4,372 nt of DNA from a virus (Duplodnaviria; Heunggongvirae; Uroviricota; Caudoviricetes). Below, piece by piece: positions 1 to 4,372 of the stretch (positions are counted from its first letter, which is position 1; every line of letters starts with the position of its first letter). Location of the stretch: IMG/VR virus record IMGVR_UViG_2778261454_000004; one strand, 5' to 3'. Made by a program: the position numbers and the translations under genes. Below the pieces are notes generated by a model that had not been told where the DNA came from, ran no database searches, and saw only the letters and a list, made by a program, of their open reading frames with translations.

Positions 1-283
1 GGTTGAGAAGCGGTGTAAGTGAACTGCAGTTGCCATGTTTTACGGCAGTGAGAGCAGAGATAGCGCTGATGTCCGGCGGTGCTTTTGCCGTTACGCACCA
101 CCCCGTCAGTAGCTGAACAGGAGGGACAGCTGATAGAAACAGAAGCCACTGGAGCACCTCAAAAACACCATCATACACTAAATCAGTAAGTTGGCAGCAT
201 CACCCGGGCCTTACGCTAATGTAACTTCTTTCCTTCTTCGAACCAAACCGTGTACACCATCCGTTATCTGCGGAGGTAAGGCT

Positions 284-499
284 ATGAAATCCATGGATAA
301 GTTAACAACGGGCATCGCCTACAGCACCTCTGCAGGCAGTGCTGGCTACTGGTTTTTACAGTTGCTCGATAAAGTCACGCCCTCACAGTGGGCGGCAATA
401 GGTGTATTGGGTAGTCTGGTATTTGGCATGCTGACGTATCTGACAAACCTTTATTTCAAGATTAAAGAAGACAAGCGTAAGGCTGCATGGGGAGAGTAA
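284..499 (+). CDS. essQ: Class II pinholin, phage 21 S-type, 71 aa with dual start (antiholin from ATG 284, holin from ATG 293)
   Basis: Translation [71 protein letters not shown]. Two predicted TMDs: a Gly/Ala/Ser-rich SAR-like TMD1 and a hydrophobic TMD2, then a charged C-terminal tail. The Met-Lys-Ser-Met N-terminus is the classic holin/antiholin dual-start motif. GGAGG at 267-271 sits about 12 nt upstream of ATG 284. The listed ORF 191-499 begins at an in-frame TTG; 284 is the first ATG. The Qin-paralog symbol is inferred from the neighbouring cspI/ynfN/gnsB/ydfO context, not from a search. Confidence 0.85.
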
Positions 500-503
500 T
501 TCA

Positions 504-818
504 ATGACTCAAAAATATGAACTGATTGTGAAAGGGATCCGCAATTTTGAGAATAAAGTTACGGTAACTTTAGCGTTACGGGACAAAGAACGCTTTGACG
601 GTGAAATTTTTGACCTGGACATCTCGCTGGACCATGTTGAAGGTGCCGCGCTGGAGTTTTATGAGGCAGCAGCCAGAAGGAGCATCAGACAGGTCTTCCT
701 GGATGTTGCTGCCGGGTTATGTGAAGGGGACGAGCTGTTGCCAGAAACGCGACCCTGTTCAGAGGCTCGGTATACCATAAAAATTAACAGTTCAGATAAC
801 TCGATTACGGGTTGTTAG
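504..818 (+). CDS. ydfR: YdfR-like protein of unknown function (DUF1327-type), 104 aa, between holin and endolysin
   Basis: Intact ORF starting 4 nt after the holin stop, with GGGGAGAG (490-497) 6 nt upstream of ATG 504. Acidic, no predicted TM segment. The position between the holin and lysozyme genes matches the Qin-type lysis cassette as I recall it. Function unknown. Confidence 0.7.
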   Translation: MTQKYELIVKGIRNFENKVTVTLALRDKERFDGEIFDLDISLDHVEGAALEFYEAAARRSIRQVFLDVAAGLCEGDELLPETRPCSEARYTIKINSSDNSITGC

Positions 819-873
819 CTTTTTGCAGTTGGCTTTCCAGTATCTTTCATTGGTAGCATCCTGATAAATATCC

Positions 874-1901
<1,028 letters not shown>

Positions 1902-2151
1902 GGTAATATTAAATCGGAACATTTACATCGCGGAATGTAAAATTTAAATAAAAAGGACTCTTCCATGAGCCAAAATTCCTGAAATCTTAAGGGTAAGATA
2001 AAAGGTCTTAATCAGAATGACACGTTTTATTAATAAATAAAGCTATTCTTTCATTGCTGTGTTTTTCTTTACAAAAGTAATCCTTGCTATGGGTGGTTAA
2101 TCATGCGTTAATGGTGTTCTGGTTTGTTACAAATTTATCTGAAGCAGTCAT

Positions 2152-2160
2152 TGTTATAAT
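2152..2160 (+). promoter_or_regulatory. Candidate extended -10 promoter element (TGtTATAAT) for cspI
   Basis: Perfect TATAAT at 2155-2160 preceded by TG at 2152-2153, inside an AT-rich block. It would give a leader of about 95 nt before cspI. A second candidate (TTGCTA 2084-2089, 18-bp spacer, GTTAAT 2108-2113) would give a longer leader. No experimental support. Confidence 0.4.
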
Positions 2161-2262
2161 TTTATTATTTGTACCTCTTGAGATTTCCTTGTTGGTTTTT
2201 CTCTCTGATATTTTTTTCGGACCATTCTGCCCAAGGGCTAATTTCTTCAAAAGGTAATAATT

Positions 2263-2475
2263 ATGTCTAACAAAATGACTGGTTTAGTGAAATGGTTTAA
2301 CCCTGAAAAAGGTTTTGGTTTCATCACGCCGAAAGATGGCAGCAAAGATGTGTTTGTCCATTTCTCAGCAATTCAGAGCAACGATTTCAAAACATTAACT
2401 GAGAATCAGGAAGTTGAATTTGGTATTGAGAACGGACCTAAAGGTCCTGCCGCTGTTCATGTAGTGGCGCTTTGA
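2263..2475 (+). CDS. cspI: Cold-shock protein of the CspA family (CspI), 70 aa
   Basis: Translation [70 protein letters not shown] carries the cold-shock-domain RNP1 (KGFGFI) and RNP2 (VFVHF) motifs. The AAGGTAATAATT-ATG initiation region resembles that of cspA. Preceded by a long AT-rich leader. Confidence 0.93.
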
Positions 2476-2563
2476 GGTAGACAATATTACAAACCATATT
2501 CACTTTAGATGCCCGTGTTGTCATGGTTCCCAGTATAGAACATCATCTTTTGATGTTTCTGAC

Positions 2564-2674
2564 ATGAATCCTTTCGGGGCAAAATGTATCTTTTGTAAAT
2601 CAATGATGATTACATTTGATAATATTTCACAATACTTAAATGCCAGCCGTCTGTCGTTGGATTTAAAAAAGTGA
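2564..2674 (+). CDS. Possible small zinc-ribbon-like ORF or gene remnant; only the ATG-initiated 36-aa part is annotated
   Basis: The frame is open from 2465 to stop 2672-2674 and reads ...CPCCHGSQYRTSSFDVSDMNPFGAKCIFCKSMMITFDNISQYLNASRLSLDLKK, i.e. two Cys pairs (CPCC and CIFC) about 22 residues apart. No ATG, GTG or TTG lies upstream of ATG 2564 in this frame, so the first Cys pair has no canonical start. Below the length cut-off of the ORF track. Confidence 0.25.
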   Translation: MNPFGAKCIFCKSMMITFDNISQYLNASRLSLDLKK

Positions 2675-2679
2675 AAATG

Positions 2680-2702
2680 AAGGCTCCTTCGGGAGCTTTT
2701 TT
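2680..2702 (+). terminator. Intrinsic terminator: GC-rich hairpin with UUCG tetraloop followed by a T-run
   Basis: Stem AAGGCTCC (2680-2687), loop TTCG (2688-2691), stem GGAGCTTT (2692-2699) with one G-U pair, then TTTTTTG; six T at 2697-2702. Lies about 200 nt after the cspI stop and before ynfN. Confidence 0.75.
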
Positions 2703-2820
2703 GCTTGGTGTCTATTCGATGGATACTCACATACTACGGTAACATCATGAAAAAAATCATAGTTTTTTTAACTCTGAACCAGCAGTGGTAGTGCCAGCGA
2801 TGACTGGAGTTAACACCATC

Positions 2821-2976
2821 ATGCGTGAATATCCAAATGGCGAAAAAACACACCTTACTGTAATGGCCGCAGGGTTTCCATCTCTGACCGGAGATCATAA
2901 AGTCATTTATGTAGCCGCGGATCGACATGTTACTTCAGAAGAAATTCTGGAAGCAGCAATAAGGCTCTTGAGTTGA
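2821..2976 (+). CDS. ynfN: YnfN-like small protein, 51 aa (alternative start ATG 2800 gives 58 aa)
   Basis: Translation MREYPNGEKTHLTVMAAGFPSLTGDHKVIYVAADRHVTSEEILEAAIRLLS. Length and position (between cspI and gnsB) match my recollection of the Qin-prophage cold-shock-induced gene ynfN. GGAG at 2806-2809 is 11 nt upstream of ATG 2821. Start choice is not verified. Confidence 0.6.
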   Translation: MREYPNGEKTHLTVMAAGFPSLTGDHKVIYVAADRHVTSEEILEAAIRLLS

Positions 2977-3093
2977 TTTGATGCTATTGCATTGATAATT
3001 CAGGAAAATTCTCTTTGTCTGTTTGTGTAAAATTTAGACTATCGTATGTTGATTATTGCGATGTTTCATCTTATCTTTTACACGTTTGCACCA

Positions 3094-3099
3094 TATAAT
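3094..3099 (+). promoter_or_regulatory. Candidate -10 hexamer (TATAAT) for gnsB
   Basis: Perfect TATAAT at 3094-3099, about 48 nt upstream of the gnsB start. The -35 is weak: TTATCT at 17-bp spacing, or TTTACA at only 11 bp. Confidence 0.3.
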
Positions 3100-3147
3100 C
3101 GACTTACTGTGTAACTGGAAAGTCATAACAGACTAAAAGAGGAAATG

Positions 3148-3321
3148 ATGAATATTGAAAACTTAAAAACAAAAGCAGAAGCAGATATTTCTGAATATAT
3201 AACAAAAAAAATTATTGAACTTAAGAAAAAGACCGGGAAAGAAGTTACCAGTATTCAGTTTACCGCACGGGAAAAAATGACGGGTCTTGAAAGCTATGAT
3301 GTCAAGATTAATTTAATCTGA
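3148..3321 (+). CDS. gnsB: GnsB (GnsA/GnsB family small protein), 57 aa
   Basis: Translation MNIENLKTKAEADISEYITKKIIELKKKTGKEVTSIQFTAREKMTGLESYDVKINLI closely resembles the GnsA/GnsB sequences I recall (MNIEELKK...TGKEVSEIRFTAREKMTGLESYDVKIKIM). AGAGGA at 3137-3142 is 5 nt upstream of ATG 3148. An additional in-frame ATG at 3145 would add one Met. Confidence 0.85.
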   Translation: MNIENLKTKAEADISEYITKKIIELKKKTGKEVTSIQFTAREKMTGLESYDVKINLI

Positions 3322-3347
3322 TGTATTCAATAATAAAATTTATCCAT

Positions 3348-3370
3348 AAACCTCGTTTTTACGGGGTTTT
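3348..3370 (+). terminator. Probable intrinsic terminator downstream of gnsB
   Basis: AAACCTCGT (3348-3356), loop TTTT, ACGGGG (3361-3366), then TTTTGTT. The stem has one G-U pair and is followed by a T-run. Confidence 0.5.
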
Positions 3371-3435
3371 GTTATATTTGAATGGTTCCGAATATCTAAA
3401 TCACAATTGTTGATGGTTTTTATTAAACCAATGCA

Positions 3436-3464
3436 GTCCGGCTCAGGAGTGAGAGAAGCCGGAC
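3436..3464 (-). terminator. Hairpin just downstream of the ydfO-like gene (minus strand); possible weak terminator
   Basis: Perfect 8-bp inverted repeat GTCCGGCT (3436-3443) / AGCCGGAC (3457-3464) with a 13-nt loop, starting 9 nt after the minus-strand stop. The following minus-strand sequence (TGCATTGGTTTAAT) is only moderately T-rich. Confidence 0.35.
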
Positions 3465-3472
3465 GTTATGGT

Positions 3473-3883
3473 TTAGCGTGGTAAGATCTGTGTAGTTTTC
3501 TGGATGCTTTCAGTAAATAGTAATGAATTATCAAAGGCATAGTAATATCTTTTTTGTTCGTGGATATTTGTAACCCACCGAAAAACTCCTGCTTTAGCAA
3601 GGTTTCTTCTGTATTCCTGAAATGTGATCTCTCTGGATTTCAGCTTATTAGAGGTCGTTTCTATAAGATGCCTATCCTTTGAAAATTTGACAGACACAAT
3701 GTTTTTTAGGCCCTTTAATAACACTGTATTATCATTTTTTAATACAATATGAACATTCTCTGTGGCTAAATAGTAAATGTAATGTGAGACATTGTGACGT
3801 TTTAGCTCAGAATAAAACCATTGATAGTTTAAATCGTTTCGAACTTTATCAAATATTTGTTTAAAAATGACTACCTGATCCAT
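3473..3883 (-). CDS. ydfO: YdfO/YbcV-like protein, DUF1398 family, 136 aa, function unknown
   Basis: Translation from [47 protein letters not shown]... matches the prophage YdfO/YbcV family as I recall it. Start set at ATG 3883 because GGAAGG lies 7 nt upstream on the minus strand; the listed ORF start at 3898 has no Shine-Dalgarno. Confidence 0.75.
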
Positions 3884-3940
3884 AGATAAACCTTCCATGT
3901 GATATGAGGGGGCGTAGTCTGCACGATTATCTAAATTGCT

Positions 3941-4174
3941 TCAATCTGGTCTGACCTGTTTTCTGAGCAATTCAGTAATGTCACTCTTTTCTTTGTTTGC
4001 TTCAGGAGAAACTCTTTTTTCTGAGCACAGTCTCCGGCGGCAGGCTTCAATGACCCAGGCTGAGAAATTCCCGGACCCTTTTTGATCAAGAGCGATGTTA
4101 ATTTGTTCAATCATTTGGTTAGGAAAGCGGATGTTGCGGATTGTTGTTCTGCGGGTTCTGTTCTTCGTTGACAT
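3941..4174 (-). CDS. Small basic ribbon-helix-helix (Arc/MetJ/CopG-like) DNA-binding protein, 77 aa; possibly YnfO-like
   Basis: Translation MSTKNRTRRTTIRNIRFPNQMIEQINIALDQKGSGNFSAWVIEACRRRL... shows a basic N-terminal segment (RTRRTTIRNIRF, beta-strand-like) followed by two short helices, the usual RHH pattern. It sits 57 bp upstream of the DUF1398 gene and is co-oriented with it. Fold is inferred, not computed. Confidence 0.6.
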   Translation of the reverse strand: MSTKNRTRRTTIRNIRFPNQMIEQINIALDQKGSGNFSAWVIEACRRRLCSEKRVSPEANKEKSDITELLRKQVRPD

Positions 4175-4321
4175 GAGGTTGTCCCGTATTTAGTGTCGCT
4201 GATTTGTATTGTCTGAAGTTGTTTTTACGTTAAGTTGATGCAGATCAATTAATATGATACCTGCGTCATAATTGATTATTTGACGTGGTTTGATGGCGTA
4301 GATGCACGTTGTGACATGCAG

Positions 4322-4338
4322 ATGATAATTATTATCAT
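4322..4338. promoter_or_regulatory. Perfect 17-bp palindrome ATGATAAT-T-ATTATCAT; candidate operator, Fur-box-like
   Basis: Positions 4322-4338 are exactly self-complementary around 4330. 4324-4342 (GATAATTATTATCATTTTG) matches the 19-bp Fur-box consensus GATAATGATAATCATTATC at 15 of 19 positions by hand alignment. It lies about 150 bp upstream of the RHH gene start. Confidence 0.4.
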
Positions 4339-4372
4339 TTTGCGGGTCCTTTCCGGCGATCCGACAGGTTAC

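Follow-up and report, generated by a model that had tools for sequence, protein, structure and literature searches.

Why does the late region of a lambdoid prophage carry a row of small genes of its own between the lysis cassette and a leftward gene pair, and do these genes serve the cell at low temperature, as an earlier note on this DNA proposed? The question was examined in the window, i.e., the whole 4,372-nucleotide stretch of viral DNA that was analysed. The segment is almost certainly the known cspI-ynfQ-ynfR-ynfN-gnsB stretch of Qin-type lambdoid E. coli prophages: window positions 205-4372 show 99.7% identity to many E. coli chromosomes, in which these gene names are annotated. As such, the cassette is already known. 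The K-12 annotation includes all five genes, and an earlier study has called cspI and ynfN morons of a Qin-like phage (PMC9928086). Taken as a whole, the segment is best explained as one AT-rich moron module of about 1.36 kb with a likely value for host fitness (probability roughly 0.7).

The features are listed below. Promoter assignments are consensus readings backed by conservation, and promoters and terminators are predictions from sequence. A2 denotes an alignment of eight Escherichia/Citrobacter modules.

1404-1901, plus strand: rzpQ, Rz-type gene (Pfam DUF2514, 133 bits; annotation), last of the lysis cassette and left flank of the module
2064-3420, plus strand: conserved csp / ymcF-like / ynfN / gns module, the moron cassette (homology limits, G+C)
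2084-2112, plus strand: cspI promoter, -35 TTGCTA (2084-2089), 17-nt spacer, extended -10 TGcGTTAAT (2104-2112)
2118-2262, plus strand: cspI 5′UTR of about 144 nt, cspA-type RNA thermoregulator (Rfam RF01766; near-invariant in A2)
2263-2475, plus strand: cspI, CspA-family cold-shock protein of 70 aa (Pfam CSD, 108 bits; annotated in MB19 and K-12)
2486-2674, plus strand: ynfQ, YmcF-like CxxC...CxxC zinc-ribbon small protein of 62 aa with an ATT start (PF23641, 109 bits; K-12 and MB19 annotation)
2677-2742, plus strand: ynfR, 21-codon ORF running through T1 (annotated in K-12)
2679-2702, plus strand: T1, intrinsic terminator with hairpin and T-run (-12.4 kcal/mol, nine pairs and then the T-run)
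2747-2976, plus strand: ynfN, frameshifted allele, with a 14-codon stub (2747-2791) and a C-terminal frame from GTG 2785 or ATG 2821 to 2976
3049-3099, plus strand: candidate gnsB promoter, -35 TTGATT (3049-3054), 17-nt spacer, -10 TATCTT (3072-3077)
3094-3099, plus strand: perfect TATAAT upstream of gnsB, found in E. coli only, a candidate promoter element
3148-3321, plus strand: gnsB, GnsA/GnsB family, 57 aa (Pfam PF08178, 120 bits)
3348-3379, plus strand: T2, intrinsic terminator after gnsB (terminator scan; nine pairs, z=-2.5)
3473-3898, minus strand: ydfO (DUF1398), right flank (Pfam)
3941-4174, minus strand: ynfO (DUF3950), right flank (Pfam), followed by the cos-proximal region

Position, limits and inheritance

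Three plus-strand genes had been proposed within 2041-3321. The three, cspI, ynfN and gnsB, are present at the coordinates listed above, but the annotated records have five; those missed were ynfR and ynfQ, the latter being invisible to an ORF scan because of its ATT start. The proposed extent is close to the limits obtained from related loci, since homology to Citrobacter modules starts at 2064-2071 in three cases and at 1950 in two, and homology to phage 2H10 and two species-level loci (L010 and L011) stops at 3420; it omits, however, the gnsB terminator. DLP12 DNA homology resumes at 3454.

On the left the module adjoins the Rz-type gene rzpQ, and on the right the leftward ydfO/ynfO unit (3473-4174), which has homologues in DLP12 (ybcV and ylcI) and in the p78 region of lambda, just as the earlier note had placed it. 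Its statement that bor occupies this position in lambda also proved correct: in both lambda and DLP12, bor follows Rz, with the DUF1398 gene on its other side. Lambda bor and DLP12 borD thus share the slot between Rz/Rz1 and the DUF1398 gene, and are likewise cargo expressed from the prophage. The content differs: bor, for which the lambda record mentions serum resistance, is one lipoprotein gene reading leftward, whereas the window has five genes that read rightward, in the direction of late transcription, and have functions unrelated to bor. Related phages carry other cargo in this slot and its right neighbour varies (ydfO, ybcW or cos), as is typical of a moron site. The composition is also that of a moron, with a G+C of 35% in the module compared to 47% in the lysis genes (holin-Rz stretch); the drop occurs at about 1900, and low G+C extends into ydfO. 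The AT-rich composition, together with a conserved predicted promoter and predicted terminators of its own, agrees with the description of the segment as cargo within the phage late region.

The complete cassette was found in 2094 of 5426 complete E. coli genomes, the ynfR-ynfN part in 2119 and the gnsB part in 2116, and about 99% of the genomes with any part have the parts together. The gene order (csp, ymcF-like, ynfN or ymcE, gns) is kept in all 23 species-level loci and all 80 IMG/VR contigs, i.e., 103/103 overall across three genera and viral contigs, where the loci and viral contigs counted were those with a Gns homologue. Isolated phages Tritos, PhiR42_1, 2H10, mEp460_ev081, HannyBb and PhiR63_1 carry the whole block. 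The same module occurs without prophage surroundings in some Citrobacter; in Citrobacter meridianamericanus it lies between phoPQ and purB-hflD-mnmA, outside any prophage. The module has been inherited and has moved as a unit, both in phages and, in Citrobacter, outside them. Comparative data had been named as the means of exposing three unrelated insertions, but co-occurrence and constant order speak for a single module, as the note had supposed. The genes represent one conserved, mobile four-gene module with a common regulatory anatomy, which is a reason to study them jointly; ynfQ, ynfR and ynfN continue to be catalogued as uncharacterised. The practical value of the finding is small.

The Qin prophage of K-12 has the same genes in the same order (cspI-ynfQ-ynfR-ynfN-gnsB; b1552, b4724, b4749, b1551, b1550) between the same flanks (rzpQ; ydfO and ynfO). 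It shares the T7 frameshift allele of ynfN, and a 339-column alignment over ynfR-ynfN is identical to the window. The differences lie outside the cassette: the window departs from K-12 at the ydfR-rrrQ junction, and ahead of the holin gene it has an IS1 end instead of the K-12 sequence. No functionally relevant difference was seen within the cassette. The IS1 junction itself (204/205) was found in none of the complete E. coli genomes searched.

Genes, signals and a possible course of expression

The CspI translation shows the RNP motifs KGFGFI (RNP1) and VFVHF (RNP2), and the Pfam CSD match covers 1-65 of 66, placing the protein in the CspA family; the nearest NCBIfam models are CspG and CspA, with scores slightly below the equivalog cut-offs. 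Defence-system libraries gave just a weak generic CSD match for CspI, and a defence function was rejected.

All bases of both cspI promoter elements are invariant in A2. The downstream RF01766 match (2118-2502) scores 114.2 bits, above the gathering score of 78 (E=1.3e-29), extends over the full model length (positions 1-428), and includes the cspI coding sequence besides the leader. The model starts at the cspA transcription start, and the match begins at 2118. The gene therefore has the long cspA-type 5′UTR that marks the cold-inducible subset of CspA proteins. The resemblance of leader plus coding region to the cspA mRNA thermosensor is known here as a sequence match; the isolated cspI leader folds no more stably than shuffled sequence (z=-0.56), and the same is true of the gnsB leader (z=+0.67), so folding energy alone supports no structural claim. 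Cold induction of cspI is reported in the literature.

A generic promoter scan of the window returned two sites, neither convincing, compared to 6.0 expected in shuffles, and the promoter calls therefore rest on conservation in A2. The proposal that each gene has its own candidate promoter and terminator held for the cspI promoter, and for gnsB with its candidate promoter and T2, but not for ynfN, which has no recognisable promoter or terminator of its own in the window.

The Shine-Dalgarno sequence of ynfQ (GAGG) overlaps the cspI stop, and both it and the ATT start are conserved in A2. YnfQ belongs to the PF23641 family (match over 1-61 of 62), with two CxxC pairs (CPCC and CIFC), and is 66% identical to YmcF; a ymcF-like gene adjoins the csp gene in 23/23 species-level loci. 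T1 begins 4-5 nt past the ynfQ stop, which suggests that it is leaky, and it is probably an attenuator of this kind. It follows the ymcF-like gene in 12/12 modules examined, the chromosomal cspG-ymcF included, and the differences among modules change G-C to G-U, so that pairing is preserved only in plus-strand RNA. The overlapping ynfR appears to be lineage-specific, because its ATG is absent in Citrobacter.

The ynfN reading frame (stub at 2747) lies 45 nt downstream of the conserved T1; in K-12 the gene is annotated at 2821-2976. The T-run at 2763-2769 is T7 in the window, as in K-12, and T8 restores a 76-aa frame, the form seen in MB19, phage 2H10 and Citrobacter. Among 96 loci, 80 have T8, 15 have T7 and one has T9. 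The N-terminus of the 76-aa form (MKKVIVFFN) is near-invariant; PHROG 3425 corresponds to this form and PHROG 4911 to one of 51 aa. Since ynfN is frameshifted in both the window and K-12, at least one member of the cassette is dispensable here. The K-12 gene is broken, and work on function should use the T8 allele.

In a lysogen, the sigma-70 promoter would produce a cspI-ynfQ mRNA, and the long leader, by analogy with cspA, might stabilise this mRNA and raise its translatability after a temperature downshift. Translation of ynfQ would start from the weak ATT codon beside the cspI stop. Read-through of T1 would then allow expression of ynfR and ynfN, possibly favoured by ribosomes stopping on ynfQ. 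Antitermination activity is known for CspA-family proteins, and this may also promote read-through. Expression of gnsB would be separate, from its own weak promoter, and would shift membrane lipids toward unsaturated acyl chains. During lytic growth, Q-modified late transcription should traverse the whole co-oriented module.

Expression and the question of cold

Published data on low temperature concern several of the genes. Tagged YnfR (YnfR-SPA) rises strongly after cold shock (PMC6001520), although the ynfR ORF spans T1, and ynfQ is listed as cold-shock induced in a published study. In a microarray time series, gnsB clustered with cspB, cspC and cspI. The literature search found no direct measurement of cold induction for ynfN or gnsB, the key primary papers being outside its scope, and no cold phenotype of the cassette was found in the literature searched. 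A role in cold is supported for cspI, ynfQ and ynfR, is indirect for gnsB and is hypothetical for ynfN. Cold adaptation, as the earlier note had it, is a plausible role for the cassette as a whole that is only partly documented: the thermoregulator leader of cspI, the cold induction of YnfR and the listing of ynfQ agree with it, but induction of cspI, ynfQ and ynfN occurs at 37 °C as well.

The data at 37 °C are considerable. In an LF82 lysogen of Tritos, the cassette of which is 99.7% identical, cspI and ynfN were expressed 93-fold and 27-fold over the prophage background (PMC9928086), and the same study found strong expression of both in overnight LB cultures grown at 37 °C. As gnsB was missing from the list of genes that exceeded background 5-fold or more (PMC9928086), the module is not simply co-expressed. 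AZT induced cspI 6.5-fold, ynfQ 5.9-fold and ynfN 5.8-fold in a published study, with similar SspA dependence (38, 42 and 51, respectively) and with LexA dependence as well. In long-term stationary phase at 37 °C, cspI and ynfN reached their highest expression with parallel profiles, and a cspI mutant lost competitions under these conditions.

A broader stress role is possible because of this induction at 37 °C. The module might mainly help lysogens through long starvation, replication or DNA damage and translation limited by RNA folding, cold being one inducer among others. The stationary-phase peak and the outcompeted cspI mutant, the roughly 6-fold response to AZT through LexA and SspA, and the strong expression in overnight cultures all fit such a role, but the cspA-type leader, the cold induction of YnfR and the low-temperature phenotypes of gnsA/gnsB overexpression point to temperature, and as the principal explanation it is rather unlikely. 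The two roles are compatible with each other. The module most likely owes its selective value to a gain in host fitness in the cold and under related stress on translation or RNA folding; for a benefit specific to cold, the odds are about even.

The beneficiary could also be the phage, with the Csp chaperone/antiterminator and membrane remodelling aiding late expression, lysis or packaging at low temperature. The module is co-oriented with the late genes, directly after the lysis cassette and before cos, it is retained in isolated, viable phages, and many Qin-type phages have a second csp pair (cspF and cspB) immediately upstream of the holin gene. Against this, the module has a predicted promoter of its own that is invariant, it is expressed while the prophage is repressed, and defective Qin remnants, for instance the one in K-12, have kept it. 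It is also present in Citrobacter chromosomes that lack phage genes, and a derived form exists in the Escherichia chromosome. All of this makes a service to the phage improbable.

gnsB, the toxin label and the chromosomal relative

GnsB matches PF08178 over 1-54 of 54 and is a member of the GnsA/GnsB family. It is 67% identical to GnsA, the crystal structures of which (4XO1 and 4XO2) it matches with E=5e-20. The blocks of the candidate gnsB promoter are the sole conserved parts of the otherwise divergent ynfN-gnsB spacer in A2; they score under the threshold of the generic promoter scan. In Citrobacter, a different hairpin with a T-run occupies the place of T2. Overexpression of gnsB is said to increase unsaturated fatty acids. 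An effect of GnsA/GnsB overproduction on unsaturated fatty acids had been mentioned in the earlier note, and measurements on gnsA agree with it: its expression restored 16:1 and 18:1 fatty acids in a study of relA fadR strains. Such strains are rescued at 25-30 °C by gnsA or gnsB carried on ASKA plasmids. The reported effects of gnsB are effects of overexpression.

The same family carries a different label. The Pfam title of PF08178 is 'GnsA/GnsB toxin of bacterial toxin-antitoxin system', NCBI annotates gnsB as 'addiction module toxin', and ymcE-gnsA has been listed among type II pairs, with Wei 2015 cited. Accordingly, GnsB could be a toxin and the product of the upstream ynfN its antitoxin, the pair stabilising the prophage. 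A type II antitoxin gene is adjacent to the toxin gene, usually overlaps it, and is retained with the intact toxin, but ynfN and gnsB are separated by 171 nt with a conserved promoter-like block between them, and ynfN is frameshifted in 15/96 loci, including K-12 and the window, where gnsB is intact. YnfN has no detectable similarity to YmcE, the two giving no alignment even at E<=100; the ynfN and ymcE modules, though paralogous, therefore have non-homologous genes in the middle. Plasmid-expressed gnsA and gnsB rescue growth instead of stopping it, and no PADLOC match was obtained. The toxin label suits this locus poorly, and an addiction module is very unlikely. That three unrelated small genes were inserted independently and became neighbours by chance can practically be dismissed: the poorly conserved ynfN-gnsB spacer, the apparently separate regulation of gnsB and the exchange of the middle gene (ynfN or ymcE) would suit this view, but it is refuted by the joint occurrence of the parts and the gene order described above, and the block is also present outside phages.

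The single moron module has a chromosomal relative in Escherichia/Shigella, cspG-ymcF-ymcE-gnsA, which likewise comprises a csp gene, a CxxC small protein gene with a terminator directly after it, a 76-codon ORF and a gns gene. DNA identity is 74% over cspI-ynfQ (window 2259-2622) and 73% over gnsB. In contrast to the window, its middle ORF is the unrelated ymcE, the distance from ymcF to gnsA is 194 nt rather than 473 nt, gnsA, which overlaps ymcE, lacks a spacer of its own, and the surroundings are not those of a phage. The leader of cspG is cspB-like (76.5% identity, compared to 45% for cspI).

With the neighbouring cspH included, the chromosomal locus (cspH-cspG-ymcF-ymcE-gnsA) resembles a fossil of a Qin-type late region.

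A tentative and somewhat doubtful extension of the moron reading would join these elements into an ancient stress operon, complete in itself, that moves back and forth between lambdoid phages and the chromosomes of enterobacteria, with T1 as a built-in attenuator and the Escherichia locus as a domesticated fossil. Read-through of T1 into ynfN would then be set by ynfQ translation, by antitermination through the module's own Csp protein, or by both. The fossil could have arisen by recombination between the cspB-like and cspI-like genes of a phage, deleting the lysis cassette from holin to Rz, with ynfN lost later. If the cspG-gnsA locus does descend from a prophage, it would be an example of phage cargo turned into core stress machinery.

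Genomic setting and gene content

Positions 205–4372 are 99.7% identical to many E. coli chromosomes. The best match is strain MB19, in which the RefSeq gene order is essD-type holin, YdfR-family gene, rrrQ lysozyme, rzpQ, cspI, ymcF/ynfQ, ynfR, ynfN, gnsB, ydfO and ynfO (both leftward), nohA and terminase. The same gene run is present in the cryptic prophage Qin of K-12 MG1655, and the Pfam assignment of every protein is consistent with the annotation (P21-type holin, DUF1327, phage lysozyme, DUF2514, CSD, YmcF-like, GnsAB, DUF1398 and DUF3950). On this agreement between the MB19 and K-12 annotations and Pfam, the window is, by sequence, the late region (lysis to cos) of a Qin-type lambdoid prophage, and the cassette within it does exist, although it had been described and annotated before. 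An IS1 copy contributes its outer end as the first 204 nt (93% identity to the IS1 beside cspH); in other Qin-type phages this position is occupied by cspF, cspB and the Q region. Phage DNA takes over from IS1 80 bp before the holin gene, at a junction absent from all complete E. coli genomes searched.

Two minor features lie to the left of the cassette. An ORF embedded in the +1 frame of rzpQ (1579–1851), with a lipobox-like LTSC, is the counterpart of K-12 rzoQ, which encodes the Rz1-type outer-membrane spanin. The AT-rich stretch separating rzpQ from the cspI promoter contains a terminator-like hairpin and T-run on the minus strand (1956–1971). None of the window's leftward genes ends at this point; in phage 2H10 a small leftward ORF is annotated near it.

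All three genes named in the earlier note (cspI, ynfN and gnsB) were found where it had placed them, but two more annotated genes, ynfQ and ynfR, lie between cspI and ynfN. The position also agrees with what it says of phage lambda: both lambda and DLP12 carry bor after Rz/Rz1, followed by a DUF1398 gene, and the window has the cassette in that slot. Eight modules (those of E. coli and phage 2H10, and those of six Citrobacter species) were aligned to locate conserved non-coding parts. The main features are:

2084–2112, + strand: probable cspI promoter, TTGCTA (2084–2089), 17 nt spacing, TGcGTTAAT (2104–2112); all bases invariant in the alignment
2486–2674, + strand: ynfQ, 62-aa CxxC...CxxC protein of the YmcF-like family (Pfam, 109 bits)
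2677–2742, + strand: ynfR, annotated, 21 codons; the ORF passes through T1
2679–2702, + strand: T1, hairpin and T-run (−12.4 kcal/mol), beginning 4–5 nt past the ynfQ stop
2747–2976, + strand: ynfN, frameshifted, with a T7 run at 2763–2769
3348–3379, + strand: T2, probable terminator after gnsB

Carriers and boundaries of the cassette

The whole segment (2041–3420) is present, at ≥80% coverage, in 2094 of 5426 complete E. coli genomes, usually as one copy per genome; 2119 genomes have the ynfR–ynfN part and 2116 have the gnsB part. A scan for GnsB relatives, using one genome per bacterial species, gave 23 loci from Escherichia, Shigella, Citrobacter and two metagenome bins labelled as other genera, and the order csp, ymcF-like, ynfN or ymcE, gns is the same in all 23. 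The IMG/VR viral contigs examined (80/80) carry RzpQ, CspI, YnfQ, YnfR, YnfN and GnsB as far as each contig extends, followed on the right by ydfO and then either ynfO–nohA or ybcW. Isolated phages also carry the whole block, at 99.7–99.9% identity in Tritos and PhiR42_1, and at about 91% in 2H10, mEp460_ev081, HannyBb and PhiR63_1. The four-gene module of Citrobacter meridianamericanus (L013, 3860–5290), with a full-length ynfN, is situated between phoPQ and purB-hflD-mnmA, with no phage genes within 5 kb. Three further Citrobacter loci (L012, L018 and L019) likewise have a chromosomal csp/ymcF/ynfN/gns module without phage genes nearby, and in other Citrobacter copies the module follows lysozyme and Rz genes.

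Co-occurrence, constant order, and the presence of both phage and Citrobacter chromosomal copies indicate that the cassette passes between phages and chromosomes in one piece. The idea of a cargo unit, or moron, was borne out, and co-occurrence and gene order identify one cassette rather than unrelated independent insertions. Homology with the chromosomal Citrobacter copies begins at 2064–2071. On the right, homology with 2H10 and with two species loci having a different right flank ends at 3420, and DLP12 homology picks up again at 3454. The limits proposed earlier (2041–3321) were close, but left out the gnsB terminator. The module has a G+C content of 35%, lower than the 47% of the lysis genes.

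Signals, expression and possible function

The cspI leader (about 144 nt) is as conserved as the coding sequence. The Rfam cspA thermoregulator matches 2118–2502 over the full model, with 114 bits where the gathering score is 78; this match takes in the coding region. Folded by itself, the leader has an energy that does not stand out. The ynfQ gene appears in an ORF scan only as a 36-aa fragment because it begins with ATT (2486–2488). This start lies 10 nt past the cspI stop, which is overlapped by a GAGG Shine-Dalgarno sequence, and both are conserved in the alignment. ATT start codons are rare and are discriminated against by initiation factor IF3, and this one could make ynfQ translation responsive to the condition of the translation machinery.

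T1 was found in 12/12 modules inspected, the chromosomal cspG–ymcF among them. The G-C to G-U changes between modules keep pairing only in the plus-strand RNA, a pattern that favours a genuine terminator or attenuator acting on that strand. The ynfR ATG is absent from the aligned Citrobacter copies, so this ORF is a lineage-specific reading of the spacer. Downstream, ynfN begins 45 nt past T1, and no conserved promoter-like element for it was found in the alignment, making the earlier description of genes with their own signals inaccurate. The T7 allele of the window and K-12 splits the gene into a stub of 14 codons and a C-terminal part in a frame of its own. In MB19, phage 2H10 and every Citrobacter copy a T8 run gives a 76-aa YnfN starting MKK(I/V)IVFFN, and the N-terminus lost in T7 is nearly invariant across the family; the 51-aa K-12 "YnfN" is probably a remnant. 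Over all loci compared, a T8 run was counted in 80, a T7 run in 15 and a T9 run in one. Sixty-two protein clusters make up the family, with Escherichia and Citrobacter as the source whenever an organism is named; among curated families the family matches only two PHROGs of unknown function; a confident structure model predicts five strands and a helix.

The ynfN–gnsB spacer is divergent except for TTGAT(T/A) at 3049–3054 and TATC(T/G)T at 3072–3077, 17 nt apart, a candidate gnsB promoter; E. coli additionally has a perfect TATAAT at 3094–3099. At the position of T2, Citrobacter has a different hairpin and T-run.

In a Tritos lysogen of LF82 in LB, cspI is expressed 93-fold and ynfN 27-fold over the prophage background, and gnsB is missing from that study's list of genes with 5-fold or higher expression over background (PMC9928086). 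AZT raises cspI 6.5-, ynfQ 5.9- and ynfN 5.8-fold, with similar SspA dependence (PMC11228462). The cspI and ynfN profiles run parallel in long-term stationary phase, where a cspI mutant is outcompeted (PMC7406224). Tagged YnfR, whose ORF spans T1, is strongly increased by cold shock (PMC6001520), although this may merely reflect T1 read-through. These data fit together if a single transcript from the cspI promoter partially reads through T1 into ynfR and ynfN, and gnsB is controlled separately. As T1 is so near the ynfQ stop, a ribosome ending on ynfQ would cover its 5′ arm, and ynfQ translation could suppress termination. CspA-family proteins are known antiterminators, and such antitermination could modulate read-through. 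From established lambda biology, Q-modified late transcription should run through the whole co-oriented module during lytic growth.

The cold-adaptation role first proposed is reasonable for cspI, ynfQ and ynfR and mechanistically attractive for gnsB, while for the whole module it is plausible rather than established; we give a cold-specific benefit about even odds. Against a cold role, a literature search turned up no cold-shift experiment that measured ynfN or gnsB directly, and no phenotype of a cassette deletion is reported. For gnsB, the original overexpression phenotypes reportedly go back to Sugai (2001). At 25–30 °C, relA fadR strains can be rescued by expressing gnsA or gnsB from a plasmid, and gnsA restores 16:1 and 18:1 fatty acids (bioRxiv 2024.03.27.586906); in one microarray series gnsB clusters with cspB, cspC and cspI. 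The main rival is a broader role in RNA-folding or translation stress, favoured by the clear induction seen at 37 °C in starved cells and in cells under replication stress. A toxin–antitoxin label for ynfN/gnsB fits poorly: YnfN is unrelated to YmcE, the genes are 171 nt apart with a conserved block of its own in the spacer, ynfN is frameshifted in 15/96 loci while gnsB is intact in the window and K-12, overexpressed gnsA and gnsB rescue growth, and PADLOC gave no match.

The chromosomal paralogue

The K-12 locus cspH (leftward), cspG, ymcF, ymcE, gnsA (L003, 3968–5242) is colinear with the Qin cspF–cspB unit joined to the cspI–ynfQ...gnsB unit; in Qin the cspF–cspB unit lies upstream of the holin gene. 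Its ymcE ORF (4848–5078) starts inside ymcF, crosses the conserved T1 terminator and overlaps gnsA. From cspH through the intergenic region and cspG leader to the first part of cspG, identity to cspF–cspB is 76% over 635 nt; the rest of cspG with ymcF is 74% identical to cspI–ynfQ, and gnsA is 73% identical to gnsB. The cspG leader is 76.5% identical to that of cspB and 45% to that of cspI. Within cspG, informative sites favour cspB 10 to 5 in nt 1–72 and cspI 30 to 12 in nt 73–216 (Fisher p = 0.014, in one three-sequence comparison), and the gene looks like a cspB-5′/cspI-3′ hybrid. This, together with the colinearity, suggests that the cspH–gnsA core locus is a prophage fossil without lysis genes. 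The labelling of ymcE as a conserved gene that encodes a protein, and as an antitoxin, may need re-examination. Most simply, the two csp paralogues of a Qin-type prophage would have recombined with each other, with loss of the holin-to-Rz cassette, and ynfN would have been replaced by an unrelated ORF, ymcE, which has no similarity to it.
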